Shown here: positions 2,840 to 40,506 of the stretch, piece after piece | Position numbering within the stretch: position 1 is the first letter of the stretch | How the letters are laid out: each line of letters starts with the position of its first letter | Assembly (NCBI GenBank): GCA_030637025.1 | Contig: DAOVVV010000008.1 | Span: 5,802-69,801, forward strand | DNA length: 64,000 nt | Direction: 5' to 3' | From: Clostridia bacterium | Lineage (GTDB): Bacteria; CBDUZB01; JAGLHV01 | Translations under genes and position numbers: made by a program | The notes under the pieces: generated by a model | The model's input: only the letters and a program-made list of their open reading frames with translations | Databases searched by the model: none | Told to the model about the DNA's origin: nothing

Positions 2840-2860
2840 GCTTAAAATTTAGGCAGAATA

Positions 2861-4905: not shown

Positions 4906-4972
4906 TGAAAGTGTCAAAAAAGGAATGGCAAGAAAAACAGAAAGAAGTTTGTAGATAAAGAGAAAATCGGGG

Positions 4973-5038
4973 GGTAGCCGCAGGCTTTAGCCTGCGTTAT
5001 CGTTGGAGATTTTACGCAGGCTAAAGCCTGCGACTACA
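4973..5038. repeat. palindromic element copy (ggtagccgcaggctttagcctgcg...cgcaggctaaagcctgcgactaca)
   Basis: Same architecture as 2553-2620. Two internal 16-bp hairpins flanked by inverted ends. Confidence 0.6.
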
Positions 5039-5109
5039 AAAACAGAAATCAGAACAGAAATATGCAGATATTTTTGACAATACTAAAGGAATATTGAAAG
5101 AGATAAAAA

Positions 5110-8100
5110 ATGAAAAATACATTTTTTCCTAAAAAACAAGGATTATATGATCCACAATTTGAAAAGGATTCCTGTGGTGTAGGATTTGTGTGTGATATAA
5201 AAGGCAGGCAATCTAACGAAATGTTGCATTTGGGGATACAATCTCTTAATCGCCTCCTACATCGTGGTGCTACCGGCGCAGATCCTGAAACCGGAGATGG
5301 TGCGGGTATTCTTATTCAAATCCCCGATGAATTTTTCCAAAAAGAAACTCAAAAAATAGGAATTGATTTACCCCCATTAGGTGAATACGGTACAGGTTTA
5401 ATATTTTTACCTCCGGATAAAAAAGAGCGGCAGTTTTGTAAAGATATTTTTACAAAAATAATCAAACAGGAGCAGCAAAAACTTTTAGGATGGCGCAGGG
5501 TTCCGGTGGATGATTCCAGTATCGGTAAAACTGCCCGCCAGACTCAACCGGTGATTGAACAAATTTTTATTGCTAAAGACCCGAAGGTCAAAAAACAGAT
5601 ATATTTTGAAAGGCGCCTTTATGTAATTAGAAAACAGATAGAAAATATTATTCGTGCTTCTAATTTAAAACAAAAATCATATTTTTATGTTAATAATATT
5701 TCCTCTCGTACTTTTGCTTATAAAGGGCTATTAATTTCTAATCAATTGGAAAACTTTTTTCTGGATCTTAAAGATAAAAGCTTAAAAACCGCTCTTTGTT
5801 TAGTACATGCGCGCTATAGCACCAATACTTTTCCTACATGGGATTTGGCTCAGCCATTTAGGTTCTTAGCTCATAACGGAGAGATTAATACCTTACAGGG
5901 TAATATTAATTGGATGCGGGCCAGAGAAGGTTTACTACAAAGTGAAGTGTTTAGCGATCAAGATATTGAAAAAATAAAATCCATAATTGTTCCGGGTGGA
6001 AGTGATTCTGCAACTATTGATAATGTATTTGAATTACTTGCTTTAACCGATAAGTCCCTTCCACATGCGATGATGATGCTTATTCCCGGTGCCTGGCAGG
6101 AAAATAAATTAATGGATAAAAAATTAAAAGATTTTTATAAGTATCATGCCTGCTTTATGGAACCGTGGGATGGACCGGCTGCTATTGCTTTTACGGATGG
6201 GGTTAAAATCGGTGCTGTATTAGACAGGAATGGTTTGCGCCCGGCACGTTATATTGTAACTAAGAAAAATTTTGTGGTTATGGCGTCAGAAGTAGGGGTT
6301 TTAGATATAGCTCCGGAAGATATTCTTTTATCAGGAAGGTTAGAGCCGGGTAAAATATTTTTTATCGATACGGAAAAGGGGGAAATTGTCGAGGATAATG
6401 AAATAAAATTGGAAATGGCAGAAAGGCATCCCTATGGTCATTGGATGAAAGAACAGATGGTTGATCTTGATAAAATGCCGGCAGTTAAAAATACCCAAAA
6501 AATTATGCAGGATAGAGTAACATTTTTAAAAGCCTTTGGTTATACCCGCGAAGACTTAAAGTTTATTATCAAATTTATGGCTGAAAACGGAGAGGAACCT
6601 ACAGGTTCAATGGGGGATGATACCCCTCCTGCAATTTTATCTAAAGAACCGGAGCTTCTTTATAATTATTTTAAACAACTTTTTGCCCAGGTAACTAATC
6701 CGGCCATTGATCCTATAAGAGAAAACTTAGTAATGAGCCTGGAAAGTTATATCGGTTCTGAAAAGAATATTTTAGCAGAGACATCTTTACATTGTCATAA
6801 ATTAAGAGTAAAGAAACCTGTTTTGAGTAACGAAGATTTAGAAAAAATACGCAACATAAAAAAGAATGATCTTAAAACAAAGACTATTTCCGTTTTGTTT
6901 TCCACTAAGAACAAAGATAATAAGGAATTTATAAAAGCCCTGGATAAAATATGTGCAGAGGCAGTTATGGCAATCAAAGAAGGGTATACTTTTATTATTT
7001 TAAGTGACCGGGGTGTTAATAAAGAATATGCGGCAATACCGATTCTTTTAGCTCTGGGGGCCGTACATCATTTTTTAGTAAAAAAGGCTTTGCGTTCTCA
7101 AATTGGAATTATAATAGAAAGTGCGGAACCACGCGAAGTTCATCACTTTGCTCTTCTTTTTGGATACGGTGCTGATTGTATTAATTCTTATTTGGCCTAT
7201 GATGCAATTAAATATTTAATAGATGAGAACCGGATAGAATTAGATTATGATATTGCTTTGAGTAATTATAGAAAAGCTGTTGATAAAGGAATATTTAAAA
7301 TCCTTTCGAAGATGGGGATATCAACCTTACAAAGTTACAAAGGTGCTCAGATATTTGAAGCCCTGGGTTTAAAGGAAGAGATAATTAACAGGTGTTTTTT
7401 AGGAACGGTTTCCCGTATTGGCGGAGCAGGGTTTGATGTTATTATTAAAGAAACTCTTTTGCGCCACGAAAAAGCCTATTCCCAAAAAGAAACAACAACT
7501 TCTTCTTATCTGGATGCCGGTGGTGTGTACCAATGGAAAAGAAACGAAAAGTTTCATTTATGGAATCCCCAGACTATTTCTGCTTTACAGAATGCAGTCA
7601 GACAAAATAGTTATTCCGGGTATAAAGAATTTGCCCGTACGATAAATGACCAATCAGAAAATCCTGCTACTCTACGCAGTTTATTTAAATTTAAAAAAAC
7701 CGGAGCGATACCAATAAACAAAGTAGAACCGGCAGAAAAAATCCTAAAACGTTTTGTTACCGGGGCAATGAGCTTTGGTTCTATTTCCAAAGGAGCGCAC
7801 GAAAGTATTGCTATTGCGATGAATCGATTAGGTGCCCGTTCCAATACAGGGGAAGGGGGTGAAGATCCTGCACGGTTTAAGCCGTCGACTAATGGTAATT
7901 TTAAGCGTAGTGCAATAAAACAGGTTGCTTCAGGAAGATTTGGAGTAACTACGAATTATTTGGTAAATGCTGATGAGTTACAAATAAAAATAGCACAAGG
8001 GGCAAAACCCGGGGAAGGGGGGCAGCTTCCCGGGCATAAAGTAAGCCCGGCTATTGCCCAAATTCGTTATACTACCCCGGGAGTAATTTTAATTTCTCCT

Positions 8101-9651
8101 CCACCCCATCACGATATTTATTCTATTGAAGATTTAGCTCAATTAATCTTTGACTTAAAAAATACTAATCCCGGTGCCCGGATAAGCGTTAAACTTGTTT
8201 CTGAAATGGGGGTAGGAACAGTTGCGGCCGGAGTAGCTAAGGGACATGCCGATATGATTTTAATTTCCGGAGGAGATGGGGGAACCGGTGCTTCTCCCCG
8301 GAGTTCTATAAGGTATGCCGGTCTTCCCTGGGAATTAGGTATTTCAGAAACACATCAGACCCTGGTTTTGAATGATTTGCGTTCAAGGGTACGTTTACAA
8401 ACCGACGGACAAATGCGTACGGGGCGGGATATAGCCATTGCAGCCCTTTTGGGAGCAGATGAATTTGGTTTCGGTTCAGTTGTTTTGGTTGTTTTGGGAT
8501 GTATGATGCTCAGGCATTGCCATCTTAATAATTGTTCGTTAGGTGTTGCTACTCAAGACGAAGTTTTACAGGAAAGATTTAAAGGTAAACCTGAACACAT
8601 TGAGAATTATTTTCGTTTTGTAGCTGAGGAGATACGAGAAATTATGGCTGAGTTAGGATTTAGTAAAATGGATGAAATGGTCGGACGAACAGATTTATTA
8701 GAAATAAACCAAAATATTATTCCATGGAAAGCTAAAAATATTGATTATTCCGGTATTCTTTATCAGCCGCAAGGAGCTCATAAATTTTCAGGTTCGATTG
8801 AGCAGGATCACGGAATTGAGTACGTTTTGGATAAGAAACTTATTGAATATGCCCGGCCGGCTTTAGAGCAAGCACAAAAAGTTAGCATGGAGTTGAAAAT
8901 CAAAAATGTAAATAGAACCACCGGGGCAATGTTGAGTGGAAAGGTATGTAAAAAATATGGGGAAAAAGCCCTTGCAGAGGATACTATTTGTTTTAAGTTT
9001 AAAGGTGTCGCCGGTCAGAGCTTTGGTGCCTGGTTGGCTAAAGGGATAACCTTTGAATTGGAGGGTTTGGCTAATGATTATATCGGGAAAGGTATATCCG
9101 GAGGAAAAATAATTGTTTATCCGGATAAGAAATCGGATTATAAACCGGAGGAAAATATTATTATTGGGAATACGACTTTTTATGGTGCAATAGCAGGAGA
9201 GGCTTATATTTGCGGGGTTGCCGGGGAGAGATTTTGTATAAGAAATTCCGGTTTATACGCAGTGGTAGAAGGAGTGGGAGATCACGGTTGTGAATATATG
9301 ACCGGGGGAAGAGTGGTTATTTTAGGTAAAACAGGAAGGAATTTTGCTGCCGGAATGTCAGGTGGGATTGCCTATGTTTACGATGAAAAAAATAATTTTA
9401 AAGATAAATGCAATTTGAATATGGTAGAGTTGGAAAAAATAGATAAAGAAGATGAAAAAACCGTTTATGATTTACTGAATAGTCACTATATTTATACGCA
9501 AAGTTCCCGGGCAAAAACGATTTTAGATAATTTTAAAAATAAAATTAAAAAGTTTATTAAAGTAATGCCTGTAGAATACAAGCGTGTTTTAGAAGAAAAG
9601 AGAAAAAAAGAGACATTAGATTTGGAGGGGGTTTCAAATGGGAGATCCTAA
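5110..9651 (+). CDS. gltB: glutamate synthase large subunit (1513 aa)
   Basis: N-terminal Ntn amidotransferase domain (Cys in DSCGVGF), central domain, FMN domain and C-terminal GXGXG domain. Confidence 0.92.
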   Translation: MKNTFFPKKQGLYDPQFEKDSCGVGFVCDIKGRQSNEMLHLGIQSLNRLLHRGATGADPETGDGAGILIQIPDEFFQKETQKIGIDLPPLGEYGTGLIFLPPDKKERQFCKDIFTKIIKQEQQKLLGWRRVPVDDSSIGKTARQTQPVIEQIFIAKDPKVKKQIYFERRLYVIRKQIENIIRASNLKQKSYFYVNNISSRTFAYKGLLISNQLENFFLDLKDKSLKTALCLVHARYSTNTFPTWDLAQPFRFLAHNGEINTLQGNINWMRAREGLLQSEVFSDQDIEKIKSIIVPGGSDSATIDNVFELLALTDKSLPHAMMMLIPGAWQENKLMDKKLKDFYKYHACFMEPWDGPAAIAFTDGVKIGAVLDRNGLRPARYIVTKKNFVVMASEVGVLDIAPEDILLSGRLEPGKIFFIDTEKGEIVEDNEIKLEMAERHPYGHWMKEQMVDLDKMPAVKNTQKIMQDRVTFLKAFGYTREDLKFIIKFMAENGEEPTGSMGDDTPPAILSKEPELLYNYFKQLFAQVTNPAIDPIRENLVMSLESYIGSEKNILAETSLHCHKLRVKKPVLSNEDLEKIRNIKKNDLKTKTISVLFSTKNKDNKEFIKALDKICAEAVMAIKEGYTFIILSDRGVNKEYAAIPILLALGAVHHFLVKKALRSQIGIIIESAEPREVHHFALLFGYGADCINSYLAYDAIKYLIDENRIELDYDIALSNYRKAVDKGIFKILSKMGISTLQSYKGAQIFEALGLKEEIINRCFLGTVSRIGGAGFDVIIKETLLRHEKAYSQKETTTSSYLDAGGVYQWKRNEKFHLWNPQTISALQNAVRQNSYSGYKEFARTINDQSENPATLRSLFKFKKTGAIPINKVEPAEKILKRFVTGAMSFGSISKGAHESIAIAMNRLGARSNTGEGGEDPARFKPSTNGNFKRSAIKQVASGRFGVTTNYLVNADELQIKIAQGAKPGEGGQLPGHKVSPAIAQIRYTTPGVILISPPPHHDIYSIEDLAQLIFDLKNTNPGARISVKLVSEMGVGTVAAGVAKGHADMILISGGDGGTGASPRSSIRYAGLPWELGISETHQTLVLNDLRSRVRLQTDGQMRTGRDIAIAALLGADEFGFGSVVLVVLGCMMLRHCHLNNCSLGVATQDEVLQERFKGKPEHIENYFRFVAEEIREIMAELGFSKMDEMVGRTDLLEINQNIIPWKAKNIDYSGILYQPQGAHKFSGSIEQDHGIEYVLDKKLIEYARPALEQAQKVSMELKIKNVNRTTGAMLSGKVCKKYGEKALAEDTICFKFKGVAGQSFGAWLAKGITFELEGLANDYIGKGISGGKIIVYPDKKSDYKPEENIIIGNTTFYGAIAGEAYICGVAGERFCIRNSGLYAVVEGVGDHGCEYMTGGRVVILGKTGRNFAAGMSGGIAYVYDEKNNFKDKCNLNMVELEKIDKEDEKTVYDLLNSHYIYTQSSRAKTILDNFKNKIKKFIKVMPVEYKRVLEEKRKKETLDLEGVSNGRS

Positions 9652-26765: not shown

Positions 26766-27488
26766 ATGCGTACAGGCAATCCGGCTTTAAAATCTAATGT
26801 TTTTACTTCTGCTGCTTCTTTTGGTTCAGCAGAGGTGATGAGTATTCAGGGAACAGTAAACAAAACAATGTTTTTACTTTTACTTACCCTGGTTAGTGCT
26901 TCGTGGGTATGGAGCAATGCCGCCCAGTGGATGCCGTTTATGTTTCCGTTGGTTATTGGTGGGTTCATTGTAGCCTTAATAACAATTTTTAAAAAAGAAT
27001 GGGCAATGATAACTGCACCTGTTTATGCAGTAGTAGAGGGACTGTTTTTAGGGGTCATTTCAGCTTTTATGGAAAGGGCATATCCCGGTATTGTTATTCA
27101 GGCAGTAGCTTTAACTTTTGGTACATTATTTTGTTTGCTTATTGCTTATAAATCAAAGTTGATTAAAGTTACTGATAATTTTAGGCTTGGCGTGGTTTCG
27201 GCAACAGGAGCTATAGCGTTAATATATTTTGTTACGATTATTTTGGGTTTTTTTGGTATTCGAATGCCTTTTATCCATGAAAGCGGACTTATTGGCATAG
27301 GATTCAGTTTGTTTGTAGTGGTGATTGCTTCCCTTAATCTGGTGCTTGATTTTGACTTCATTGAAAAGGGAGCAGAATCAAATGCACCCAAATATATGGA
27401 ATGGTATGCAGCATTTGGATTAATGGTTACTCTTATCTGGCTTTATCTTGAAATGTTGAGGTTGTTAAGTAAAATGAGAAGGAGATAA
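26766..27488 (+). CDS. BI-1/YccA-like multi-pass membrane protein
   Basis: About seven hydrophobic segments. The size and N-terminal pattern fit the Bax-inhibitor/YccA family. Assignment tentative. Confidence 0.45.
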   Translation: MRTGNPALKSNVFTSAASFGSAEVMSIQGTVNKTMFLLLLTLVSASWVWSNAAQWMPFMFPLVIGGFIVALITIFKKEWAMITAPVYAVVEGLFLGVISAFMERAYPGIVIQAVALTFGTLFCLLIAYKSKLIKVTDNFRLGVVSATGAIALIYFVTIILGFFGIRMPFIHESGLIGIGFSLFVVVIASLNLVLDFDFIEKGAESNAPKYMEWYAAFGLMVTLIWLYLEMLRLLSKMRRR

Positions 27489-27533
27489 TCCTATTTAAGA
27501 TAATATTAAATCTAAAGAAAAGGGGTAATAACA

Positions 27534-27698
27534 GTGAAAACAAAAGTGTTGTTTATTCTTACAATTTTTTTTGCAATGGCAATTATCAGTGCTTGCAGCA
27601 GAAGTGATAAAACAACCGAAGAGATGCAAAAAAAAATGGAAGTAAGATGTGGTATCCGAAATGCACCGGATTTTATTCCTGCACCAGGTACGGAATAA
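27534..27698 (+). CDS. small predicted lipoprotein (54 aa, GTG start, lipobox IISAC)
   Basis: RBS aagggg, then a signal peptide with an LSAC-like lipobox. Not in the ORF track because it is under 60 aa. Confidence 0.3.
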   Translation: MKTKVLFILTIFFAMAIISACSRSDKTTEEMQKKMEVRCGIRNAPDFIPAPGTE

Positions 27699-27756
27699 TA
27701 TGATATAATATTAAATCAGTTTTTAATCTTATAAAAAGGAGAATTAAAATAACATA

Positions 27757-28836
27757 ATGGATTACCGGATTTTACACGTAAATACAGCAAATACCTGGAG
27801 GGGTGGAGAACAACAGGTAGTTTATCTGGTTGAAGGGTTACAATCAAGAGGACACAATAATTTTGTTGTCTGCCAACCAAAAAGTGTTCTGAGGGAAAAA
27901 TTATTTTCTTCGAAAACACCTGTTTTCCCCTTAGCAATGCACGGAGAGTGGGACTTAATTGCGGCTATTAAATTAGCCATGATTATAAAAAAAAATAATA
28001 TCCAAATTCTTCATCTGCATACTGCACATGCTCATACATTAGGATTGTTAGCGGCAAAATTTAATCCCGCTTGTAAGGTAATTGTATCCCGCCGGGTTGA
28101 TTTTCATATTCATTCCCGGTTCAAATATAAAAGGGGAATTAATAAAATAATTACCGTTAGTGAAAGAATCAGGCAGGTACTGATAGAAGATAAAATAGAC
28201 GCAGAAAAAATTGTTGCTGTACATAGCGGGGTTGATTTAGAAAGATTTAATGGAATAAAAAGCAACGGTTATATTTATAAAGAATTCAAACTTGATGGTA
28301 AAACCCCTATAGTAGGAATTGTGGCTGCTTTAGCTCCTCATAAAGATCATCAGAACTTTTTATATGCAGCCGGAAAGTTAAAAGAAAAATATCCTAGGGT
28401 AAAGTTTTTAATCGTAGGAGAAGGAGAATTAAAACAAGATTTAAAAATTTTAACCCGGCAGCTGGGACTGGAAAAAGAAGTAATTTTTACCGGCTTTAGA
28501 AAGGATTCTTTAGAAATTATATCAACCTTTGATGTTTTTGTTTTAAGTTCTTGTCTGGAAGGAATGGGTAGTGTTTTACTGGAAGCAATGGCTTTGGCTA
28601 AACCTATTGTTGCAACCAGAACCGGTGGCATTCCGGAAGTTGTTTTAAACGGAGTAACCGGTATTCTTGTTTCTCCGGGAGATTCCGGAGAATTAGCAAA
28701 TGGGATTATGCAATTGCTTGGAGATAATGCTTTAGCTAAAGAGATGGGTCTAAAGGGAAAGGAAAGAGTAAAAGAATTTAGTAAAGATAAAATGGTAGAA
28801 AAAACCGAAGGGATATATAAAAAAATAATGAGTTAA
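27757..28836 (+). CDS. GT4-family glycosyltransferase (GT-B, retaining)
   Basis: N-terminal HVNTANTWRGGEQQV and a C-terminal EGMGSVLLEAMALAKPIVATRTGGIPEVV EX7E-type motif. Confidence 0.8.
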   Translation: MDYRILHVNTANTWRGGEQQVVYLVEGLQSRGHNNFVVCQPKSVLREKLFSSKTPVFPLAMHGEWDLIAAIKLAMIIKKNNIQILHLHTAHAHTLGLLAAKFNPACKVIVSRRVDFHIHSRFKYKRGINKIITVSERIRQVLIEDKIDAEKIVAVHSGVDLERFNGIKSNGYIYKEFKLDGKTPIVGIVAALAPHKDHQNFLYAAGKLKEKYPRVKFLIVGEGELKQDLKILTRQLGLEKEVIFTGFRKDSLEIISTFDVFVLSSCLEGMGSVLLEAMALAKPIVATRTGGIPEVVLNGVTGILVSPGDSGELANGIMQLLGDNALAKEMGLKGKERVKEFSKDKMVEKTEGIYKKIMS

Positions 28837-28992
28837 GACAAAAACTTAATCTTTCTTCAATTGTCAAGAAAAAAAATGGCAATCTAAAAAAAACAAAGGG
28901 ATTATGACTTGTTTTATCCATTAAAAAATAGTAAAATAAATTGTATTAATTTAAAAATAAAAGCTTTTGATAAATTCTGGAAAGGGGAGATT

Positions 28993-30606
28993 ATGCAGAA
29001 ATATTCTTTTGATGCTGTTATTTTTGACTTGGATGGTGTTGTTACTAAAACAGCCCTTCTACATTCTGAAGCATGGAAAGAAACTTTTGATCAATATTTA
29101 CAACAAAGAAAAAACAAGAACAATAAACCTTTTCGCGAGTTTACCCATGAGGATGATTATCTTCCTTTTGTTGATGGTAAACCTAAATACGAGGGGGTTA
29201 AGAGTTTTTTTCAATCACGCGGAATTAATATTCCCTTTGGTGACCCCTCCGATACTGCCGATAAAAATACTATTTGTGGTGTTGGCAATAAAAAAAATAT
29301 TCTTTTTAGACAATTACTTAAAAAAAGGGGAGCAGAGACTTATCCTAGTACCATTCAATTTATAAAAAATCTGAAGGAATCAGGCATCAGAGTAGGGGTT
29401 GCTTCGTCTTCGAGAAATTGTGAAACCATTCTGGAATCCGTAGGTTTAGAAAAATTGTTCGAGACAAGAGTTGACGGGGTAGTTTCTGCACAACTTAAGC
29501 TTAAAGGTAAACCGGAAGGAGATATTTTTGTTAAAGCGTCACGTAATTTAAATGCCGTCCCATCCAAAACTGTTATAGTGGAAGATGCTATTTCAGGAAT
29601 TCAGGCAGGAAGAAACGGAGGATTTGGATTGGTTCTTGGTGTAGCAAGGAACAATAATGAATCTGAGCTTATTGAAAACGGGGCAGATATTGTAGTTAGC
29701 GATTTAGCAAAAATAAGCATGGAATATATTGAAAAGTGGTTTCACCGCAAGCCGTTATCTTTACCTTCTTTTTTAGAAAGCAACAAAGAAACAATAAATA
29801 ATTTATCCGAAAACAGAACGAATGGAAAAGATGTAATTATTAATTCCCACTATAATCACAATAATATATCCACCCTTTTTAACAAAAAAAAAGTTGTATT
29901 TCTGGATTATGACGGCACTTTGACTCCCATTGTAGAACGGCCGGAACTGGCTGTTTTGTCATCGGAAATGAGAGCGGCGATAAAACATCTTGCTGAAAAA
30001 TATACTGTTGCTATTGTTAGCGGAAGAATGAGAGAAGATGTAGAAAAACTTGTTGGAATTAAGGGGATTTTTTATGCAGGAAGTCATGGTTTTGATATTA
30101 TGGGCCCCGGTTTTTCTATGATGCATCCTAAAGTTAAAGAAATTATGCCGGTTATTTCGCAAATAATCAAACAGCTTTCTGAAAAATTGAGTGATATACA
30201 GGGGATATTAATTGAAGAAAAAAAATTTAGTGTAGCTGTTCACTATCGTCTTGTTGAGCAACAATATTTGCCTCGGATTAAAGAAATTATCGATGAGATT
30301 ATTAAAGACCAAAATAAAATTTGTTTAATGAGCGGGAAAAAAGTTTTTGAAATTTTACCTGATATTGATTGGGATAAAGGCAAGGCAGTACGATGGATTA
30401 TAGACGCTTTAAAAGTTTCCTGGCAAGATGTCTGTGTGGTCTACATCGGAGATGATGTTACCGATGAATATGCCTTTAGAACGCTCCGTACAAGAGGGTT
30501 TGGAATTTTAGTTTCTAACGAATCTAAAGAATCGGCTGCGGATTTTAGACTATCTTCAACAGAAGAAGTAAAAAAATTGTTTGAGAAGGTTGTTGCTCAT
30601 GCCTGA
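28993..30606 (+). CDS. fusion: beta-phosphoglucomutase-like HAD hydrolase (N) + trehalose-6-phosphate phosphatase (C)
   Basis: Two HAD DxD motifs: AVIFDLDGVVT (beta-PGM-like, with cap) and VVFLDYDGTLTP (OtsB-like). Start chosen at the ATG after aaaggggag. Confidence 0.7.
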   Translation: MQKYSFDAVIFDLDGVVTKTALLHSEAWKETFDQYLQQRKNKNNKPFREFTHEDDYLPFVDGKPKYEGVKSFFQSRGINIPFGDPSDTADKNTICGVGNKKNILFRQLLKKRGAETYPSTIQFIKNLKESGIRVGVASSSRNCETILESVGLEKLFETRVDGVVSAQLKLKGKPEGDIFVKASRNLNAVPSKTVIVEDAISGIQAGRNGGFGLVLGVARNNNESELIENGADIVVSDLAKISMEYIEKWFHRKPLSLPSFLESNKETINNLSENRTNGKDVIINSHYNHNNISTLFNKKKVVFLDYDGTLTPIVERPELAVLSSEMRAAIKHLAEKYTVAIVSGRMREDVEKLVGIKGIFYAGSHGFDIMGPGFSMMHPKVKEIMPVISQIIKQLSEKLSDIQGILIEEKKFSVAVHYRLVEQQYLPRIKEIIDEIIKDQNKICLMSGKKVFEILPDIDWDKGKAVRWIIDALKVSWQDVCVVYIGDDVTDEYAFRTLRTRGFGILVSNESKESAADFRLSSTEEVKKLFEKVVAHA

Positions 30607-33451
30607 AAAAGCGAATGAGGATATTAATAAAACTTCTAATTGGAAATTATCTTATAACCAATTTCAACCGGTGCAGGAGGGACTAAGAGAATCGCTTTGT
30701 ACTCTGGGGAATGGTTATTTAGGAACCAGGGGAGCTATTTATGAATCTCCTGCTTCCAGGGTACATTATCCGGGTACTTACATTGCCGGAGTTTATAACG
30801 AATTGCCTACAATTATTGCCGGGAGAAAAACATTAAACGAAGATTTTGTTAATTGTCCTAATTGGTTGTTTTTAACTTTTAAAAATGAAAAAGGAAATTG
30901 GGTTTCTCTTTCCACCAGTAAAATTCTTTTTTATCATCAAGAACTTGATTTTCGCCGGGGAGTTCTTATAAGAAAGGTCCGGCTTCAGAATGATAATGGA
31001 CAAATAACCACTATTGAAACAGAAAGGATTGTCCATTTAGTATATCCGCATTGTGTTGCAATTAAATATACCGTTATTCCTGAAAATTATGAAGGTTTCA
31101 TAACAATAAAATCAGCACTTGATGGAACAGTACAAAATACCGGTGTTCCTAGATATAGACAATTAAACTCTAAACATCTGATGCCTTCTTCCCTGGGAAG
31201 CTTTGATAATAACGGGGTTTATCTGGCAATGAAAACGACCCAATCCAATATTAAAATTTGCCAGGCAGCAAAAGTGCTGATATCTATTAACGGCAAAAAA
31301 ATTAAATCAGTAAATAAAGTTTCGACTAAAAAGAAAGAAAAAATTGAGCAGGAATTTAAAGTATTTGTGCGTCAACAACAACGCTGTGAGATTGAAAAAA
31401 TCGTTACTATTTATACCTCTAAAGATAAAGATATTAGTAATCCGCTTTCTTCCGCTATTAATTCAGTAAAAAAACATCCCGGATTTGATGTGCTTTTTAA
31501 AACTCATCAATCTGCGTGGAAAGATTTATGGAAAAAATTTGATATTCAAATTAACGGTGATGCTTTTTCCCAAAAAGTACTAAGACTGCATATTTTCCAT
31601 TTATTGCAAACAGCCTCTATTCATAATACTAAGATTGATGCCGGACTTCCAGCCAGAGGATTACATGGAGAAGCTTATCGCGGGCATATTTTTTGGGATG
31701 AACTTTTTGTTATGTCTTTTTTTGATTTCCATAGTCCGGAAATATCAAAAGCATTGCTTTTATATAGATACCAGCGTCTTATACCTGCCAGAAAATCTGC
31801 GAAAAAAAGCGGATATAAGGGAGCAATGTTTCCCTGGCAGAGCGGTTCTGACGGCAAGGAAAAAACTCAGTTTATTCATTTGAATCCAATGTCAGGTAAA
31901 TGGGGGCCCGATCATACTTATGTGCAAAGGCATGTTTCCTTTGCTATTGCTTATAATGTATGGCAATATTGGAAAAAATCTAACGACCTGGATTTTCTTG
32001 TAAATTACGGGGCTGAAATAATACTGTCAATTGCTCAATTCGGAGCCAGTCTTGCCCAATATGACGTTGAAGATAGTAGATATCATACCCATGACCTTAT
32101 GGGCCCCGATGAATTTCACGAAAAAGTTTCTAATTCACAAAAGCCCGGATTTAAAGATAATGCTTATACTAATTTGTTAATTGTGTGGACATTACTTAAA
32201 GCAAAAGAAGTTATTGCTATTTTACCTCCACAGCATCGAACCAAGATAATTAAGAAATTAAAACTTGATCAAACTGAATTACTGCGATGGAAAGATATTA
32301 CCCGTAAGATGAAGATATCTATCAATAATGAAGGCATTATTGGCCAGTTTGACGGATATTTTAAATTAAAAGAATTAAATTGGGATGCTTACAGAAGAAA
32401 ATATGATAAAATCGAACGTATGGATAGAATTTTAAAAGCGGAAGGAAAATCACCGAACGATTATAAAGCAGCCAAGCAAGCAGATGTTTTGATGCTCTTT
32501 TACTTATTTCCTTTATTTGAAATAAAAGATTTGTTTCATCGGTTAGGATATAGGTTTGATCGGTACGTTTTGAAAAGAAATTATGAATATTATATAAAAA
32601 GAACTTCACATGGCTCAAGTTTGAGTAAAGTTGTTCACTGTTACATTTCTTATTTATTAGGAAAGTCAAAAGAAGGATGGCAGTGGTTTTCCAGTGTTCT
32701 CAAATCAGATATTTATGATGTTCAGGGAGGAACAACTGTTGAGGGTATTCATACCGGCATAATGGGTGGTTCCATTGATATGGTGGTAAGAGGATTCGCC
32801 GGAGTATATATGGGGGAGCAGATAATTAATATTACTCCTAATCTTCCTCCTCATTGGCAAAGTCTCAGGCTTAAATTTTGTTATAGGAGAAATTGGTTTT
32901 CTTTATTTATAACTAAAGAACAAATTACTATTTCTATAGCCGGATCCAAATCCAAAGAATTTGCTGTTCCCGTTAAAATCCATGGAAAATTATATCATTT
33001 CTTTTTTGGAAAAAAATATAGTATTTCTCTTGAAAAAAATATTAAGGGGAAAGGGAATTCGAAAATGATACAAAAAAGGATATTAATTGTTGACGGAAAT
33101 ATTACTCAAACGGAAATACTAAAAACAAGATTACAAGCTATGGGTTATTTAATAGATTGTGCCCACACGGGTAAAGAAGCTTTGGATGTTTTAGAAACCA
33201 AATGGGTAGATTTAATTATATCTGCTATTATTTTTCAAGGAGGAATGAACGGTTTTCAATTTTTTAAAGAAGTAAAAAAGAGGAAACGGCTTTCAAAAAT
33301 ACCTATTGCTATGCAAAGCAGTAAAGCTGCAATGAAAAAAATATTTGAGATAATGGGAGTAGATATCTTTTTTGTTAAACCGTATTCTGTAGATTTATTT
33401 TTGAACGAAGTAAAAAATATTTTAAATAAAGAAGATATTTGTTCTCAGTAG
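30599..33451 (+). CDS. GH65 glycoside phosphorylase (trehalose/kojibiose/maltose phosphorylase family) fused to a C-terminal degenerate receiver (pseudo-REC) domain
   Basis: GH65 N-terminal, catalytic (alpha/alpha)6 and C-terminal domains. An in-frame CheY-like domain at the last ~125 aa has DD->DG and phospho-Asp->Ala changes. The ATG at 30599 overlaps the upstream stop (ATGCCTGA). Confidence 0.7.
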   Translation: MPEKANEDINKTSNWKLSYNQFQPVQEGLRESLCTLGNGYLGTRGAIYESPASRVHYPGTYIAGVYNELPTIIAGRKTLNEDFVNCPNWLFLTFKNEKGNWVSLSTSKILFYHQELDFRRGVLIRKVRLQNDNGQITTIETERIVHLVYPHCVAIKYTVIPENYEGFITIKSALDGTVQNTGVPRYRQLNSKHLMPSSLGSFDNNGVYLAMKTTQSNIKICQAAKVLISINGKKIKSVNKVSTKKKEKIEQEFKVFVRQQQRCEIEKIVTIYTSKDKDISNPLSSAINSVKKHPGFDVLFKTHQSAWKDLWKKFDIQINGDAFSQKVLRLHIFHLLQTASIHNTKIDAGLPARGLHGEAYRGHIFWDELFVMSFFDFHSPEISKALLLYRYQRLIPARKSAKKSGYKGAMFPWQSGSDGKEKTQFIHLNPMSGKWGPDHTYVQRHVSFAIAYNVWQYWKKSNDLDFLVNYGAEIILSIAQFGASLAQYDVEDSRYHTHDLMGPDEFHEKVSNSQKPGFKDNAYTNLLIVWTLLKAKEVIAILPPQHRTKIIKKLKLDQTELLRWKDITRKMKISINNEGIIGQFDGYFKLKELNWDAYRRKYDKIERMDRILKAEGKSPNDYKAAKQADVLMLFYLFPLFEIKDLFHRLGYRFDRYVLKRNYEYYIKRTSHGSSLSKVVHCYISYLLGKSKEGWQWFSSVLKSDIYDVQGGTTVEGIHTGIMGGSIDMVVRGFAGVYMGEQIINITPNLPPHWQSLRLKFCYRRNWFSLFITKEQITISIAGSKSKEFAVPVKIHGKLYHFFFGKKYSISLEKNIKGKGNSKMIQKRILIVDGNITQTEILKTRLQAMGYLIDCAHTGKEALDVLETKWVDLIISAIIFQGGMNGFQFFKEVKKRKRLSKIPIAMQSSKAAMKKIFEIMGVDIFFVKPYSVDLFLNEVKNILNKEDICSQ

Positions 33452-33502
33452 AATAAAAATATCTTAAAACAGAATAATTTTTTTCTAAAGGAGGTTTTTA
33501 AA

Positions 33503-33979
33503 ATGATAAAAAGCACAAAATTCAGATTAAAAGATTTAACCAAGAAATTAAAAGCAATTAAAGCAGAAGATATTATGACTAAAAAAGTTATTACCACGAC
33601 GGAAAGCACAACTTTAGCCGATATTGCTGAAATAATGATTAAAGAAAAAATAAACGGGATACCGGTAATAGGAAAAAAAGGTAAAATAATCGGGTTAATT
33701 ACTAATACTGATCTTTTTCTGGTGATGGATATGATAAAGTCAGGAGAGGTTATAAAAAACGGAATGGAACCGATTTCTAATCCAACGGTAAAATTTGCTA
33801 TGTCCACCGAAGTTATTAAGATAAAAAAAGACACAACCCTGGATGAAATTCTTACCTTAATGAAATACAAAAATGCACATACTTTTCCTGTTTTTGAAGG
33901 AAGTAAAATGGTTGGAGTAATTGGAAGACGCGATGTTTTTAAAAACTTTTACGCTATAGAAAAAGATTTGTATCTATAA
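33503..33979 (+). CDS. CBS-pair domain protein
   Basis: Two CBS motifs (DIMTKKVITT...; VKFAMSTEVIKI...). Confidence 0.7.
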   Translation: MIKSTKFRLKDLTKKLKAIKAEDIMTKKVITTTESTTLADIAEIMIKEKINGIPVIGKKGKIIGLITNTDLFLVMDMIKSGEVIKNGMEPISNPTVKFAMSTEVIKIKKDTTLDEILTLMKYKNAHTFPVFEGSKMVGVIGRRDVFKNFYAIEKDLYL

Positions 33980-34027
33980 AAAAACATGGTAAATCAATTC
34001 AATAAATTTAAGTTTACGGGGAAAAAA

Positions 34028-35494
34028 ATGAAAATTTCAGTAAAAATAATATTGTCAATGATTTTATGCTGCCTGGCTACTGTTAATGTACAGGCCAAAA
34101 CTAATATAAAAGAAGCTATCGTAAAAATATATACTGTTTGCAACCGATATAATTATTATGAACCATGGCAAATGCGCGGTCAAAGAAGAGGAACGGGTTC
34201 AGGGTGCATAATTAATGGCAACAGAATATTAACTAATGCTCATGTAATTGCGGACCAAACCTTTATCCAGGTAAAACGGGCCGGACAATCAAAGAAATAT
34301 ACAGCAGAAGTAGAAATTGTAGCTCACGAATGTGACCTTGCTATTTTGAAGGTTAAAGACGATTCATTTTTTACAGGGGTTAAACCGTTGCAGATTGGGA
34401 AATTAGCAGAAGTGAGAGATAAAGTTGCTGTTTATGGTTTTCCGGTAGGTGGTGATGAATTGTGTATTACCGAAGGGGTAGTTTCTCGCATAGAACATCA
34501 GGCATATACTCATAGTAAGGCCCATTTATTAACCTGTCAAATTGATGCTACCATTAATCCCGGGAATAGCGGGGGACCTGTAGTCAAAAATAATAAAATA
34601 GTTGGAATAGCCTTTCAAGCAGGTGCAGGTGAAAATATTGGATATATGGTTTCTGTGCCGGTTATTAATCATTTTTTACAGGACATAAAAAATAATAAGT
34701 ACGATGGAATCCCTGATATTGGTATTTCCTGTCAAAAAATGGAAAATTATGCCCTCAGAAAAAAATATAATATGAACTCTAAACAAACAGGATTGTTGAT
34801 AAATAAAATTTATCCCGGCTCTTCTGCCGAGGGAAGATTAAAATCCGAAGATATAATCCTTGCTGTAGACAATAAAAATGTCGAAAATGACGGAACAATA
34901 GAATTCCGAGAAAATGAAAGAACATTTTTTATATATGTAATTCAAAATAAATATATCAATGATACTGTTAATTTTAATATTCTAAGAGAGAGTAAAATTA
35001 TTAATGTAAAAATAAAATTGACCACCCCGGTAAATTTTTGGCGGTTAGTTCCGCATCAACAGTATGATATTGCTCCGACTTATTATATTTTAGGCGGATT
35101 GGTGTTTGAACCTTTAACTCTGGATTTTTTAAATGAATGGGGTGGAGATTGGAATAATGATGCCCTTAAGAATTTAATCAACTATTATTATTCCGGAGAA
35201 ATATTATCCGAGCGAAAAGAAATAGTCATACTGGTGCAGGTTTTAGCCGATGAAATTAATACAGGCTATCATGATTGGAAATATAATGTAATTTCTTATG
35301 TTAATGGCCAAAAGGTAAGCATCATAAGTGATTTGGTGACCGCGATTGAAAAACATAAAGGAAAATATCATACAATAGTAGATGAACGCGGATATAAAAT
35401 AGTTTTAGATAAAAATGAAGTTGATAAGAACAATCAAAGAATTTTAAAAAAATATAAAATTAATTTTGACCGTTCGGAAGATTTAAAAAAATGA
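34028..35494 (+). CDS. secreted trypsin-like (S1/HtrA-like) serine protease
   Basis: Signal peptide, catalytic His (LTNAHV), Asp (CDLAIL) and Ser (GNSGGPV), then a ~250-aa C-terminal extension. Confidence 0.7.
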   Translation: MKISVKIILSMILCCLATVNVQAKTNIKEAIVKIYTVCNRYNYYEPWQMRGQRRGTGSGCIINGNRILTNAHVIADQTFIQVKRAGQSKKYTAEVEIVAHECDLAILKVKDDSFFTGVKPLQIGKLAEVRDKVAVYGFPVGGDELCITEGVVSRIEHQAYTHSKAHLLTCQIDATINPGNSGGPVVKNNKIVGIAFQAGAGENIGYMVSVPVINHFLQDIKNNKYDGIPDIGISCQKMENYALRKKYNMNSKQTGLLINKIYPGSSAEGRLKSEDIILAVDNKNVENDGTIEFRENERTFFIYVIQNKYINDTVNFNILRESKIINVKIKLTTPVNFWRLVPHQQYDIAPTYYILGGLVFEPLTLDFLNEWGGDWNNDALKNLINYYYSGEILSERKEIVILVQVLADEINTGYHDWKYNVISYVNGQKVSIISDLVTAIEKHKGKYHTIVDERGYKIVLDKNEVDKNNQRILKKYKINFDRSEDLKK

Positions 35495-35496
35495 AT

Positions 35497-35730
35497 AGAG
35501 TTCTGCAAAATAACGCATTCTGTCATGCGGAATCTGTAATGTGTTTAAAATATCAATAGATTTCTGCTTTCCAGACTGTGTCGCAATCCCTTTTTTGGTA
35601 GTAGCAGGCTTTAGCCTGCGGCTACCACATGAAAATATGAGTTATGACACAGTCTGTTCGCAGGAATGACTTGCCTTATCCGCCAGTCTTTAAGGCGGAG
35701 CGGGCAGGCAAACTACTTCGCAGAAAGATT
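35497..35730 (+). mobile_element. MITE-like composite repeat (5' TIR agagttctgc) with the short palindromic element (35596-35627) and ccgccagtctttaaggcgg module nested inside
   Basis: Largest copy (~235 bp). Its 3' end lies 30 nt before the 35761 ATG. Confidence 0.55.
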
Positions 35731-36173: not shown

Positions 36174-36818
36174 ATGCTTGAGAAAACGGCAACAATTCGA
36201 TTCGTTTTTTACAGATATGACTTAAACACAAATTATGATAAAAATTTGTTTTGTCCTTTTGAAATATTTATCGATGATAAACTGGTTCTTGATAAAACCC
36301 TGGGTTGTACGATAAAACCCGGTTCTGATCCGATAATAAATGTAACTACAGGAACAGAACACACTTTAACTGTAAAGTTAAAAGAAACGGATGTTGTTAA
36401 AAAAATTAAAAGGGTGTTCAATAAGAACGCTACCTTAGTAATATTCTACGATTTAAATGCTAAGGATTTAGTAATCAAGATTATCCCAGATAAAGTAAAA
36501 ATTAAAATTGATTTTTCAAATGAAATATGTTTTCAATTCGAAGATTCTATTAAAATATTTCTTGATAATGAATTAGTTTTTGACAAAATTTCATTAAATA
36601 AAAATCAAAATAATAAAATACAGGAGCACAGTTCTCAGCCGGTATTGATATTAGAATTAAAACAAGGGGAGCACTGTATAGCTGTAAAATCAAAAAAAAA
36701 TAAAATCACTAAAAAAATAAAAAGAATTTTTCATAGAAACGGAACTCTATATATTTCTTATGCGGAAAAAGATACTAAAAGCGGCAAAAAACAATTGATA
36801 GTTGATTTTAATTATTAA
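36174..36818 (+). CDS. hypothetical protein with two internally repeated ~50-aa modules (KIKRVFNKNATLVIFYD... / KIKRIFHRNGTLYISYA...)
   Basis: Internal duplication seen in the translation. No recognisable family. Confidence 0.4.
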   Translation: MLEKTATIRFVFYRYDLNTNYDKNLFCPFEIFIDDKLVLDKTLGCTIKPGSDPIINVTTGTEHTLTVKLKETDVVKKIKRVFNKNATLVIFYDLNAKDLVIKIIPDKVKIKIDFSNEICFQFEDSIKIFLDNELVFDKISLNKNQNNKIQEHSSQPVLILELKQGEHCIAVKSKKNKITKKIKRIFHRNGTLYISYAEKDTKSGKKQLIVDFNY

Positions 36819-38038: not shown

Positions 38039-38728
38039 ATGTCTAAAGAAAAAATCTTAGTTATTGAGGACGATAAACATCTTTCCAAACTTATCAAGTA
38101 TAACATGGAAAAGGCTGGTTTTGACTGTGTAGCAACTCCAACCGGAGAAATAGCATTAAAAACCTTAGACAGACAACCAGTTGATTTGATTATATTGGAT
38201 ATAATGCTTCCTAAAATGGACGGACTTCAGGTTTGTAAACAAATAAAACAAGATAAAAAATTAGCTGCCATTCCCATCATTATGTTAACCGCCAAAGGTG
38301 AAGAAATAGATAGGATTGTCGGATTTGAGCTGGGTGCGGATGATTATATAGTTAAACCGTTTAGTGTGCGGGAATTAATTTTGAGAATAAAAGCAATCCT
38401 GAAACGAAATAAAAAAGAAAAAACTCTGCAAAACATATTAACTGCAGGCAAACTAACCATTGATATTCCCCGGCATAAAGTAATGGTAAATAAAAAAGAA
38501 ATAGAATTAACCCTGATTGAATTTAAGCTTTTAGTTACTCTTATAGAAAGAAAAGGCAGGGTTCAATCACGGGATCGATTATTAGATGATGTATGGGATA
38601 TATCCTCTGAGGTTACTACCCGAACTGTAGATACGCATGTTAAAAGGCTAAGACAAAAATTAGGCCCGGCGGGAAACTTAATTGAAACTGTGAGGGGAAT
38701 CGGATACAGGTTTGCTGACGGGGGATAA
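38039..38728 (+). CDS. phoB: OmpR-family response regulator, phosphate regulon
   Basis: REC domain with an intact DD...D...K set, plus a winged-helix C-terminus. Adjacent to phoR and pst. Confidence 0.85.
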   Translation: MSKEKILVIEDDKHLSKLIKYNMEKAGFDCVATPTGEIALKTLDRQPVDLIILDIMLPKMDGLQVCKQIKQDKKLAAIPIIMLTAKGEEIDRIVGFELGADDYIVKPFSVRELILRIKAILKRNKKEKTLQNILTAGKLTIDIPRHKVMVNKKEIELTLIEFKLLVTLIERKGRVQSRDRLLDDVWDISSEVTTRTVDTHVKRLRQKLGPAGNLIETVRGIGYRFADGG

Positions 38729-38733
38729 TTATT

Positions 38734-40506
38734 TTGAAAATTAATATTCATTATAAAATTACAATTATTTTTACTATAATTCTGGCGATTATTCTTTTTG
38801 GTATTTACTTATCTCTTAATGATAATTTAAAGACTAATACTTACCAACGGATTAAAACAAATCTGTTTAAAGAAACTGCTTTATGCAAATCCTTTATAGA
38901 ACAACACTATATTCAAAACCTTCAATCTCAGGAATTAGATAATTTTTTACATGAAATAGCTGATGATTTAAATTTAAGGGTCACTATTATCAACCTGGAA
39001 GGAACTGTTTTGGCTGATTCGGAAGTAAACCGGGATATTCTGGGTAAAGTGGAAAATCATCTCTATCGGCCTGAGATTCAACAGGCTCTGCATTCCGGCA
39101 TTGGAGAAAGCAGGCGTTTCAGCACCACGGTAAAAAAAGATATGCTTTATGTTGCCAGTACTATTGGCCGAAATAAGCCGGAGGGAATAATCAGATTATC
39201 TATGCCTCTAGCTGAAATTGAATTAATATCCAATCATTTAAAGAAATTGTTGATTGTTTCTCTTTTATTTGCTTTTTTTCTGGCAATTATAATTAGTTTT
39301 GCTGCTTCTATGTTTATTTCTCAACCAATAAAAAAGATGTCTTTGTTTGCCCAAGATATAGCCAAAGGTGATTTTTCTAAAAGAATTTTAAATTTAACCA
39401 ACGACGAATTCGGTGACATGGCTAAAGCTTTTAATTATATGTCTGAGCAAATTAAATTAAAAATTAACGAAGTCAACTTGAGCAAATCAAGATTTGAAGC
39501 AATTCTTTTGAGTATGTTTGAAGGGGTAATGGTTGTTGATACAAAGGGAACTATTTTATTGATGAACCGGGCACTAAAAGATTTATTGAAAGTTAAAGAC
39601 GAATTTGTAAATAAAAAACCATTGGAAATACTTCGTAACATCGAAATTCAGGAAATAGTTGATAATACATTAAAATTAAAACAGGGGGTTGAATCCCGCG
39701 AAATATCTGTTTTATTCCCGGAAGAAAAGATTTTGTTAATTCATGCAACACCGGTGGTTCGGGAAAATGAGACAGAAGGGGCTGTTTTAGTATTTCATGA
39801 TATAACAAGTTTGCGAGAGCTGGAAAAAATCCGTAAGGATTTTGTAGCTAATGTTTCCCACGAATTAAGGACCCCTGTAGCCAGCATTAAAGGTTATGCA
39901 GAGACATTATTGGATGGAGCACTGGAAGATAAAAATAATGCTAAAGATTTTTTAAAAATAATTTATACTGATATCGACCGCCTGGCAAGATTGATTGACG
40001 ATTTGCTTAATTTATCCAGGATAGAATCAGGTAAATTCAAAATGAATTTACAACTCTGTGCTATTGCTCCCATAATTAAAGGCGTTGTTTCCAGATTGAA
40101 TAAACAAGCCCGGGATAAATCCATTACTATTAAAACAAATATTCCTGAAAAGCTGGATTCTCTTTTAATTGACGAAACAAGAATTGCCCAGGTTTTATTC
40201 AATCTTATTGATAATGCCATCAAATATATACCTGAGAAGGGGAATATTATTATTTCAGTTAATGAAAAAGATGGTTTTATTCAAATAAATATTGCTGATA
40301 CCGGATCCGGCATTGCTCAGGAACATATTCCCCGGCTTTTTGAACGATTTTACCGGGTAGATAAATCCCGTTCCCAGGAATTAGGGGGAACAGGATTGGG
40401 ATTGGCTATCGTTAAACACATTATTCAAGCTCATCAGGGAGAAGTTTTTGTACAAAGCATTTTAGGACAGGGTTCTGTTTTTAGTTTTACTCTGCCTAAG
40501 GCTTAG
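38734..40506 (+). CDS. phoR: phosphate regulon sensor histidine kinase (TM-HAMP-PAS-HisKA-HATPase)
   Basis: H-box VSHELRTPV, plus N, G1 and G2 boxes. TTG start follows the phoB stop. Confidence 0.85.
   Translation: MKINIHYKITIIFTIILAIILFGIYLSLNDNLKTNTYQRIKTNLFKETALCKSFIEQHYIQNLQSQELDNFLHEIADDLNLRVTIINLEGTVLADSEVNRDILGKVENHLYRPEIQQALHSGIGESRRFSTTVKKDMLYVASTIGRNKPEGIIRLSMPLAEIELISNHLKKLLIVSLLFAFFLAIIISFAASMFISQPIKKMSLFAQDIAKGDFSKRILNLTNDEFGDMAKAFNYMSEQIKLKINEVNLSKSRFEAILLSMFEGVMVVDTKGTILLMNRALKDLLKVKDEFVNKKPLEILRNIEIQEIVDNTLKLKQGVESREISVLFPEEKILLIHATPVVRENETEGAVLVFHDITSLRELEKIRKDFVANVSHELRTPVASIKGYAETLLDGALEDKNNAKDFLKIIYTDIDRLARLIDDLLNLSRIESGKFKMNLQLCAIAPIIKGVVSRLNKQARDKSITIKTNIPEKLDSLLIDETRIAQVLFNLIDNAIKYIPEKGNIIISVNEKDGFIQINIADTGSGIAQEHIPRLFERFYRVDKSRSQELGGTGLGLAIVKHIIQAHQGEVFVQSILGQGSVFSFTLPKA

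Follow-up and report, generated by a model that had tools for sequence, protein, structure and literature searches.

An aspartate-less receiver domain fused to a predicted trehalose-6-phosphate phosphorylase and encoded beside a CBS-pair protein

Small stand-alone proteins made of a pair of CBS domains are known as regulators of partner enzymes, examples being CbpB/DarB with its partner Rel, the AMPK gamma subunit, and plant CBSX. Bacterial pseudo-receivers account for several percent of ~2 million receiver domains, and the way in which they are activated was called a mystery in a 2025 review (PMC12632262). Trehalose-6-phosphate (T6P) phosphorylase has so far been listed as a degradative enzyme only (PMC12125463). 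Here we describe a locus of a "Clostridia bacterium" (assembly GCA_030637025.1) in which a receiver domain lacking the phospho-acceptor, a predicted T6P phosphorylase, and a CBS pair are encoded together. The locus was analyzed within a 64,000-nt stretch of DNA (the window; contig DAOVVV010000008.1, positions 5,802 to 69,801 of the forward strand), in which four co-directional open reading frames (ORFs) at 27757-33979 encode a GT4 glycosyltransferase, a β-phosphoglucomutase (bPGM)-type HAD domain fused to a T6P phosphatase (TPP), a GH65 enzyme fused to a receiver domain (REC), and a CBS-pair protein. We propose, with a probability of about 0.5, that bPGM, TPP, and GH65 of this locus form a trehalose module into which a non-phosphorylatable regulatory adaptor is built; the module would operate in the synthetic direction and be gated by REC and the CBS protein. 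In what follows, fusions are marked by a double colon (bPGM::TPP, GH65::REC).

The GH65::REC protein (950 aa; 30599-33451, plus strand) contains the N-terminal, catalytic, and C-terminal domains of GH65 and a Response_reg domain, as detected with Pfam. The enzyme body (aa 1-812; 30599-33034; PF03636, PF03632, and PF03633) is connected by a flexible linker (aa 813-825; 33035-33073), which contains Met823 (33065-33067) and is of low confidence in the AlphaFold2 model (pLDDT <50), to the receiver (aa 826-950 and the stop codon; 33074-33451). PF00072 matched the receiver at aa 828-936 with 47.2 bits, the Pfam cutoff being 30.2, and in the AlphaFold2 model aa 828-948 adopt the canonical (βα)5 topology with five strands and five helices. 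Alignment with CheY and Spo0F placed D832, G833, A876, S907, and K927 of the window protein at CheY positions D12, D13, D57, T87, and K109, respectively. The phospho-acceptor aspartate is absent from the window REC, its position (D57) being taken by A876, and the Mg-binding acidic pair is incomplete, since D832 is kept and the D13 equivalent is G833. A preliminary description of this DNA, made from the letters alone, had called the strings VDGN and DLIISA degenerate and the lysine of VKPYS conserved, and had named an aspartate recovered on realignment as the outcome that would speak against a pseudo-receiver. All three strings are present, and no such aspartate appeared when the domain was aligned with CheY and Spo0F.

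The same pattern extends through the subfamily. Among 54 non-identical domains, the D57 position is occupied by Ser in 26, Ala in 19, Asp in 5, Gly in 3, and Thr in 1. The D13 position is Gly in 48 and the D12 position Asp in 49 of these domains; Ser or Thr is found at the T87 position in 50 and Lys at the K109 position in 47. When the window was compared with its closest relative, the locus L169, dN/dS was 0.154 for REC and 0.158 for the GH65 body. Since these values are equal for practical purposes, the receiver is not decaying and is under purifying selection. Overall, we classify the domain as an aspartate-less receiver (pseudo-receiver) that fails the defining tests of a phosphorylatable receiver. 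The docking or allosteric role suggested earlier fits the evidence better than phosphotransfer.

REC could instead be a working phospho-receiver that is controlled by a histidine kinase and uses another residue or a noncanonical mechanism, in line with the five subfamily members that kept the aspartate and with the presence of an OmpR-type regulator/kinase pair 4.5 kb downstream. The alanine at the D57 position of the window protein, the glycine that prevails at the D13 position, and the lack of a conserved kinase near the module in the related loci examined argue against this explanation, which we consider highly improbable, as we do the related one that the fusion is an assembly or frameshift artefact. 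The downstream pair, an OmpR-type response regulator and an sCache-HAMP-PAS histidine kinase at 38039-40506, is syntenic in L169 and has no apparent link to the Asp-less receiver.

The artefact explanation draws on the existence of split GH65/REC forms. However, L169, which comes from an independent assembly, is 89% identical to the window protein at the amino acid level (dS 0.34), and is syntenic with the window over the whole neighborhood, has an uninterrupted 958-aa GH65::REC ORF. A further 34 GH65+REC proteins of 938 to 971 aa were found in NCBI, JGI, ENA, and Logan assemblies. Conservation of the fused ORF in L169 and in these 34 proteins shows that it is not due to a local frameshift; it was to such relatives that the preliminary description had pointed as a check. 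Both gene fusions reported there, bPGM::TPP and GH65::REC, are real as judged by ORFs and Pfam domains. A stop codon between GH65 and REC, which had been named as a sign of sequencing error in the window, is indeed found in many relatives, but as a genuine alternative arrangement. In three split loci that were looked up, genes for GH65 (809 to 828 aa), REC (121 to 135 aa), and CBS follow one another. The separate REC genes, which are likewise Asp-less, possess their own GGAGG-type ribosome-binding site (Shine-Dalgarno sequence) and ATG and, because of this, are not evidence of an error in the window.

A search for CBS homologues revealed that many apparently REC-less GH65 proteins share contigs with them. 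To call fused and split forms, a same-ORF test was applied to all fetched loci; 13 were fused, 18 were split, one was undeterminable, and 75 had no REC. Met823 of the window protein aligns with the start methionine of separately encoded REC genes, which suggests that the fusion arose through loss of a stop codon. Just before the in-frame ATG of Met823 there is a purine-rich stretch, AAGGGGAAAGGGAA (33040-33067), that resembles a Shine-Dalgarno sequence. It may have been left over from an ancestor with split genes, or it may serve to start translation of a free REC within the gene. In a neighbor-joining tree of the GH65 body, fused and non-fused forms were interleaved; since many of the "non-fused" proteins belong to split forms, the tree was rejected as evidence for repeated gain of the fusion.

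A third arrangement came to light when 1.84 billion representatives were searched with a profile of the REC alignment, although the matches were dominated by multi-receiver proteins with inflated summed scores and few rows were informative. The protein P0260 is a 285-aa REC::CBS fusion with Ala at position 57, whose REC and CBS parts are 58 and 70% identical to those of the window; in the alignments, the junction between the two parts is short, about 5 residues. Its gene (locus L167) is located directly downstream of a GH65 gene whose product has a C-terminus 57% identical to that of the window enzyme. The same pieces are therefore arranged in three ways: GH65::REC followed by CBS; GH65, REC, and CBS as three genes; and GH65 followed by REC::CBS. 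In some split loci, a gene of ~252 aa lies between GH65 and CBS (L085:3691-4449; also P0246, P0247, P0299, and P0363). It encodes an Asp-less REC and then a second, more degenerate receiver-like half, which explains the 400-nt "gap" before CBS in L084-L089. A number of the ~950-aa GH65 enzymes (P0004, P0005, P0007, P0010, P0018, and others) are automatically annotated by NCBI as "response regulator," a name that hides GH65::REC enzymes from surveys of carbohydrate enzymes.

The CBS-pair (Bateman module) protein consists of 158 aa (33503-33979, plus strand) and contains two tandem PF00571 stretches (93 bits). The unit outlined in the preliminary description ended at 33451 and left this gene out; the conserved unit reaches further downstream. 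In two collection scans, 29 of the 32 loci with a REC had a CBS gene right after it, and no CBS gene was seen in any of the 75 REC-less loci; these counts are not phylogenetically independent, since most REC-bearing loci are from Omnitrophota. Two of the three REC loci without CBS are contig ends, whereas L005 is a true exception. The six further loci with REC that were retrieved one by one (L164-L169) all carry CBS as well. A metagenome scan seeded solely with the REC alignment yielded 24 close relatives, all of which adjoin or are fused to GH65 wherever upstream DNA is visible. CBS is also the most constrained gene of the locus: the protein is 96.8% identical to its L169 copy, with a dN/dS of 0.031, and the ribose-binding-type motifs G-h-h-T-x-x-D (GLITNTD) and GVIGRRD are conserved. 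We infer that the CBS protein is a sensor partner of the receiver domain.

The receiver could also be a structural or oligomerization appendage of the GH65 dimer, with CBS being a co-transcribed but functionally independent neighbor. Many solved pseudo-receivers are constitutive dimers (PMC12632262), and GH65 enzymes are oligomeric (PMC7896129). A purely intramolecular role poorly explains the occurrence of REC as a separate polypeptide, and functional independence of CBS does not agree with the joint gain and loss of REC and CBS (29 of 32 versus 0 of 75) or with the existence of a REC::CBS fusion. For these reasons, we regard the appendage explanation as unlikely and keep to REC and CBS as putative interacting partners. 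In two loci, other genes lie right after CBS: a gene of an MscS-type mechanosensitive channel in L166 (8348-9403, minus strand) and a gene that joins an amino-acid permease to a PTS EIIA_2 domain in L167 (1464-3311, plus strand). It is possible that these neighbors hint at an osmotic or transport context.

We next consider the enzyme to which the receiver is attached. All three GH65 Pfam domains scored over their cutoffs (PF03636, 226.9 bits; PF03632, 392.1 bits; PF03633, 38.4 bits). The closest solved chain to the GH65 body is 9lb6, deposited as "Trehalose-6-phosphate hydrolase" (E 1e-149), followed by kojibiose phosphorylase 3wiq (E 6e-120). Functional residues were mapped through the numbering of the kojibiose phosphorylase CsKP (PMC11442529; De Beul et al., PMC8537180). 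The catalytic acid is E505 in GPDEFHE, aligned with the same string of CsKP (E483). In CsKP, the phosphate site K330, S631, S632, and H675 stands in for the catalytic base of hydrolases (PMC11442529); the corresponding site of the window enzyme is R353, S673, S674, and H718. All 121 relatives compared have the same catalytic acid and phosphate site, apart from an alternation of Ser and Thr at 674.

The signature of T6P phosphorylases, among which the Caldithrix enzyme was confirmed experimentally, is DQGQDE at CsKP positions 64, 392, 394, 402, 416, and 585 (PMC8537180). In the window enzyme, these positions read D82, Q414, G416, Q424, D438, and E615, that is, DQGQDE. Five of the six (D82, Q414, G416, Q424, and E615) are unambiguous. 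The equivalent of position 416 is D438 if loop 3 is ungapped and W435 in the gapped HMMER alignment; the ungapped version is favored because the anchors Q424/P402 and H445/H423 are equally spaced. The kojibiose phosphorylase motif EEAPxx is matched at none of its four defined positions in the window enzyme. By sequence criteria, the enzyme is of the T6P-phosphorylase type (EC 2.4.1.216). The GH65 identification of the preliminary description holds, and the assignment to the T6P phosphorylase group, left unmade there, can be added. Another specificity, toward kojibiose, trehalose, or a new acceptor, would be compatible with the rank of kojibiose phosphorylase as the second-best solved relative, with the dependence of signature position 416 on the loop 3 alignment, and with the fact that the GH65 body reached no NCBIfam equivalog. 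Yet the five unambiguous positions fit the T6P phosphorylase motif, the kojibiose phosphorylase motif is missed at all four positions, the closest solved chain is named for T6P, and the neighboring TPP and bPGM suit T6P chemistry. We therefore find a different specificity very unlikely.

The gene upstream of GH65::REC (28990-30606, plus strand; ATG at 28990, stop at 30606) encodes a 538-aa fusion of a bPGM-type HAD domain (Pfam Hydrolase/HAD_2; aa 1-270, 28990-29799) and a TPP domain (PF02358; aa 299-538 with the TGA stop, 29884-30606). HAD motifs I to IV (FDLDGV at aa 12, ASSS at 138, KGKPEGD at 172, and EDAISG at 198), including the Asp-x-Asp nucleophile/acid pair, are intact in the bPGM-type domain. 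This domain narrowly passed NCBIfam TIGR02009 ("beta-phosphoglucomutase family hydrolase"; 154 bits, cutoff 153.35) and did not reach the bPGM equivalog TIGR01990 (117.7 bits versus a cutoff of 189.4). Since only the broader model was passed, mutase rather than phosphatase activity is a prediction, which we favor. The closest solved chain, 8h5s "Beta-phosphoglucomutase" (E 1e-54), has the same cap insertion. Its length of 260 aa and a catalytic motif at Asp27/Asp29, in agreement with the D29A catalytic mutant of Rv3400, indicate that it is probably Mycobacterium tuberculosis Rv3400. Rv3400 is a bPGM in vivo (2025 preprint, bioRxiv 10.1101/2025.11.20.689507).

The TPP domain contains the motifs DYDGTL (aa 306), SGR (344), and GDDVTDE (487) and scored 179.8 bits with PF02358 and 178.1 bits with the T6P phosphatase equivalog TIGR00685 (cutoff 68.05). 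The catalytic motifs of both halves of the fusion thus read as intact. The solved chain closest to the TPP domain is 5gvx "Trehalose-phosphate phosphatase" (430 aa; E 7e-52), which we identify with M. tuberculosis OtsB2; the degenerate HAD part at the N-terminus of this chain could be aligned as well. As stated in the preliminary description, the bPGM::TPP and GH65 genes overlap at their stop and start codons: ATGCCTGA is read at 30599-30606 of the plus strand. The overlap is of the kind that is predicted to couple translation of the two genes. The bPGM::TPP fusion itself is not unusual, since bPGM::TPP with an adjacent GH65 gene occurs in dozens of species representatives from many phyla.

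Taken together, these assignments lead to the following model. In the first step, bPGM would interconvert glucose 6-phosphate (G6P) and β-glucose 1-phosphate (β-G1P); in the second, the GH65 enzyme would form T6P and Pi from β-G1P and G6P by reverse phosphorolysis; in the third, TPP would convert T6P to trehalose and Pi, providing an irreversible pull. The net reaction would be 2 G6P → trehalose + 2 Pi, in which no UDP- or ADP-glucose is consumed. The Asp-less receiver would serve as a protein adaptor between the GH65 enzyme and the CBS protein; by Rosetta-stone logic, the pattern of fusion and co-occurrence points to a physical link between the two through the receiver. The CBS pair would bind a small-molecule or ionic signal, e.g., an adenosine-containing ligand or ionic strength, a role suggested by the retained ribose-binding-type motifs. 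This signal would shift the activity of the reversible phosphorylase through the receiver, so that the REC/CBS pair would gate production of a compatible solute.

The synthetic direction is the most likely one, because TPP forms one protein with the first enzyme and is coupled through translation to the second, as expected of three consecutive steps. If the module were catabolic, T6P would be a substrate for which TPP and the phosphorylase compete. A catabolic or homeostatic module of the same anatomy, with the same REC-CBS adaptor, can nonetheless be envisaged. T6P would be split to β-G1P and G6P, bPGM would return β-G1P to G6P, as in Lactococcus lactis, and TPP would serve a separate, OtsA-dependent synthesis; depending on energy or phosphate status, REC and CBS would decide how much T6P goes to trehalose and how much to glycolysis. 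CBS modules commonly sense adenylate state, which agrees with such a role. The fusion of TPP to bPGM and its coupling to a T6P consumer would, in that case, set two enzymes against each other for one substrate, and no trehalose PTS (phosphotransferase system), kinase, or transporter was found around the module in the window or in related loci. We treat the catabolic version as possible, though doubtful.

Several facts weigh against the synthetic, REC/CBS-gated module that we prefer, in addition to the shared Omnitrophota origin of most REC-bearing loci. The known precedents are catabolic: the L. lactis T6P phosphorylase (PMC12125463) and Rv3400 (bioRxiv 10.1101/2025.11.20.689507) both act in trehalose catabolism. 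In the Bacteroidota locus L048, a bPGM::GH65 gene is divergent to a canonical OtsA::OtsB gene; the clade thus coexists with the classical synthesis route, which weakens the argument for a bypass and, along with the catabolic precedents, keeps the catabolic version alive. The fused locus L005 lacks both the bPGM::TPP and CBS neighbors. For the REC::CBS fusion, one cluster of proteins was seen, encoded on two contigs of related samples. The CBS protein was also considered as a c-di-AMP binder of the CbpB type and rejected as such, since it scored 35.5 bits with NF041630 (cutoff 125). The supplement of a paper on Antarctic Omnitrophota was searched for the basis of its "trehalose synthesis" calls, with no occurrence found.

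In the collection of species-representative genomes, at least 596 stretches contain a member of the GH65 clade; they come from many bacterial phyla and some archaea. In 80 loci examined among species representatives, a HAD/bPGM gene is directly upstream of or fused to GH65 in nearly all, and the HAD::TPP fusion occurs in about half. Named relatives of the GH65::REC protein are almost all from Omnitrophota metagenome-assembled genomes (MAGs), so that the window itself probably stems from a genome of Candidatus Omnitrophota. The predicted bPGM/TPP/GH65 trio is thus widespread across phyla, and the REC/CBS attachment alone is lineage-restricted. The gene pair of L048 (a Tenuifilaceae MAG) consists of a 1051-aa bPGM::GH65 fusion (5224-8379, plus strand) and a 749-aa OtsA::OtsB protein (GT20 + TPP; 2843-5092, minus strand). 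The former is one more combination of these enzymes by fusion and, like the general proximity of HAD/bPGM to GH65, agrees with the proposed pathway. The REC-less locus L003 (complete genome CP070684) has, directly upstream of bPGM::TPP, the genes of a PAS kinase and of an ordinary receiver that stands alone (127 aa; 5843-6226); this receiver is distant from the GH65-linked REC subfamily (E 2e-6). In the complete Omnitrophota genome CP070797, which carries the fused GH65::REC form, an intein interrupts the gene of the RtcB RNA ligase (L001:13468-16455); it may contain a LAGLIDADG endonuclease, for which the Pfam match was faint.

The GT4 glycosyltransferase gene (27757-28836; Pfam) had been counted as the first member of the operon. 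The bPGM::TPP and GH65::REC part of that operon stands. GT4 as a conserved member does not: L169, syntenic with the window throughout this region, is the only locus with the gene at the upstream position, and none of the 80 genome loci has a GT4 gene adjoining the module. DUF362, Fic, REC, DUF3108, AAA, or SpoU genes occupy the upstream position in other loci. As judged from these loci, GT4 lies outside the conserved module. An Rfam scan of the whole window at gathering thresholds gave no matches, and no riboswitch was detectable upstream. A promoter and terminator scan of 27400-35600 gave 41 and 6 hits, compared to 34.8 and 5.1 expected from shuffled sequence; since these numbers are not above chance, operon boundaries cannot be drawn from the scan. 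Farther downstream, a 214-aa ORF without a Pfam match (36174-36818) consists of two internal repeats of ~100 aa. The first contains the strings IFIDDKLVLDK, HTLTVKLK, and KKIKRVFNKNATL, and the second contains IFLDNELVFDK, HCIAVKSK, and KKIKRIFHRNGTL. Its 211-aa counterpart in L169 is located at the same place and also has no Pfam match.

A combination of GH65 with a "receiver domain" was not found in the literature searched, and "response regulator," "fusion," and "multidomain" do not occur in a review of GH65 (PMC11442529). Our results suggest that an Asp-less REC nearly always travelling with a putative CBS sensor protein is an undescribed way of switching a T6P phosphorylase. The locus offers a compact and testable pseudo-receiver case, with an assayable enzyme as the output, a 158-aa CBS protein as the probable input, and fused, split, and alternatively fused versions provided by nature. 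The recurrent fusion of bPGM to T6P phosphatase, in turn, suggests a UDP-glucose-free route of synthesis, which, if confirmed, would bear on how uncultured phyla adapt to osmotic stress and on the coenzyme-free biomanufacture of trehalose or T6P. Tentatively, and with more doubt than confidence, one may go further and think of a sixth, nucleotide-sugar-independent trehalose route present in many phyla (bPGM, T6P phosphorylase of the GH65 family working in reverse, and TPP) and gated in Omnitrophota, at the committing step, by a CBS sensor via an Asp-less receiver. If so, the CBS protein would be the first defined input protein found to control a bacterial pseudo-receiver that sits on a metabolic enzyme.

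Each component of the module has described counterparts. A length of 1327 aa is given for M. tuberculosis OtsB1 (PMC11046441). When the M. tuberculosis proteins OtsB1 (Rv2006), OtsB2 (Rv3372), and Rv3400 are considered, the window HAD domain is closest to 8h5s and the TPP domain to 5gvx. OtsB1 joins HAD, TPP, and GH65 in one chain, the same trio as here; to our knowledge, it has no receiver and no known function. Unlike in OtsB1, the trio at the window locus is split into bPGM::TPP and GH65::REC. The CBS protein shares with CbpB/DarB-Rel, AMPK gamma, and CBSX the small two-CBS build and a presumed binding to a partner, but its putative partner is a pseudo-receiver on a sugar phosphorylase.

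T6P phosphorylases, i.e., TrePP of L. lactis, CAJ75349.1 of Ca. Kuenenia stuttgartiensis, and APF18594.1 of Caldithrix abyssi, have in common with the window enzyme the three-domain GH65 body, the catalytic glutamate, the Arg/Ser-Ser(Thr)/His phosphate site, the DQGQDE signature, and an adjacent bPGM gene. In contrast to them, the window enzyme has a ~125-aa C-terminal Asp-less receiver and an obligately linked CBS-pair gene, and a T6P phosphatase is joined to the bPGM encoded upstream. The receiver itself resembles the pseudo-receiver FrzS and the central pseudo-receiver of ShkA (PMC4395418, PMC12632262) in its PF00072-type (βα)5 fold, in the lack of the acceptor aspartate, and in the retained Ser/Thr87 and Lys109. 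Pseudo-receivers of the FrzS/ShkA type work without phosphorylation, and FrzS chains are among the PDB matches of the window protein. What sets this type of REC apart from them is that it forms the C-terminal end of a glycoside phosphorylase or, when encoded alone, lies beside one, and that it is paired with a CBS protein.

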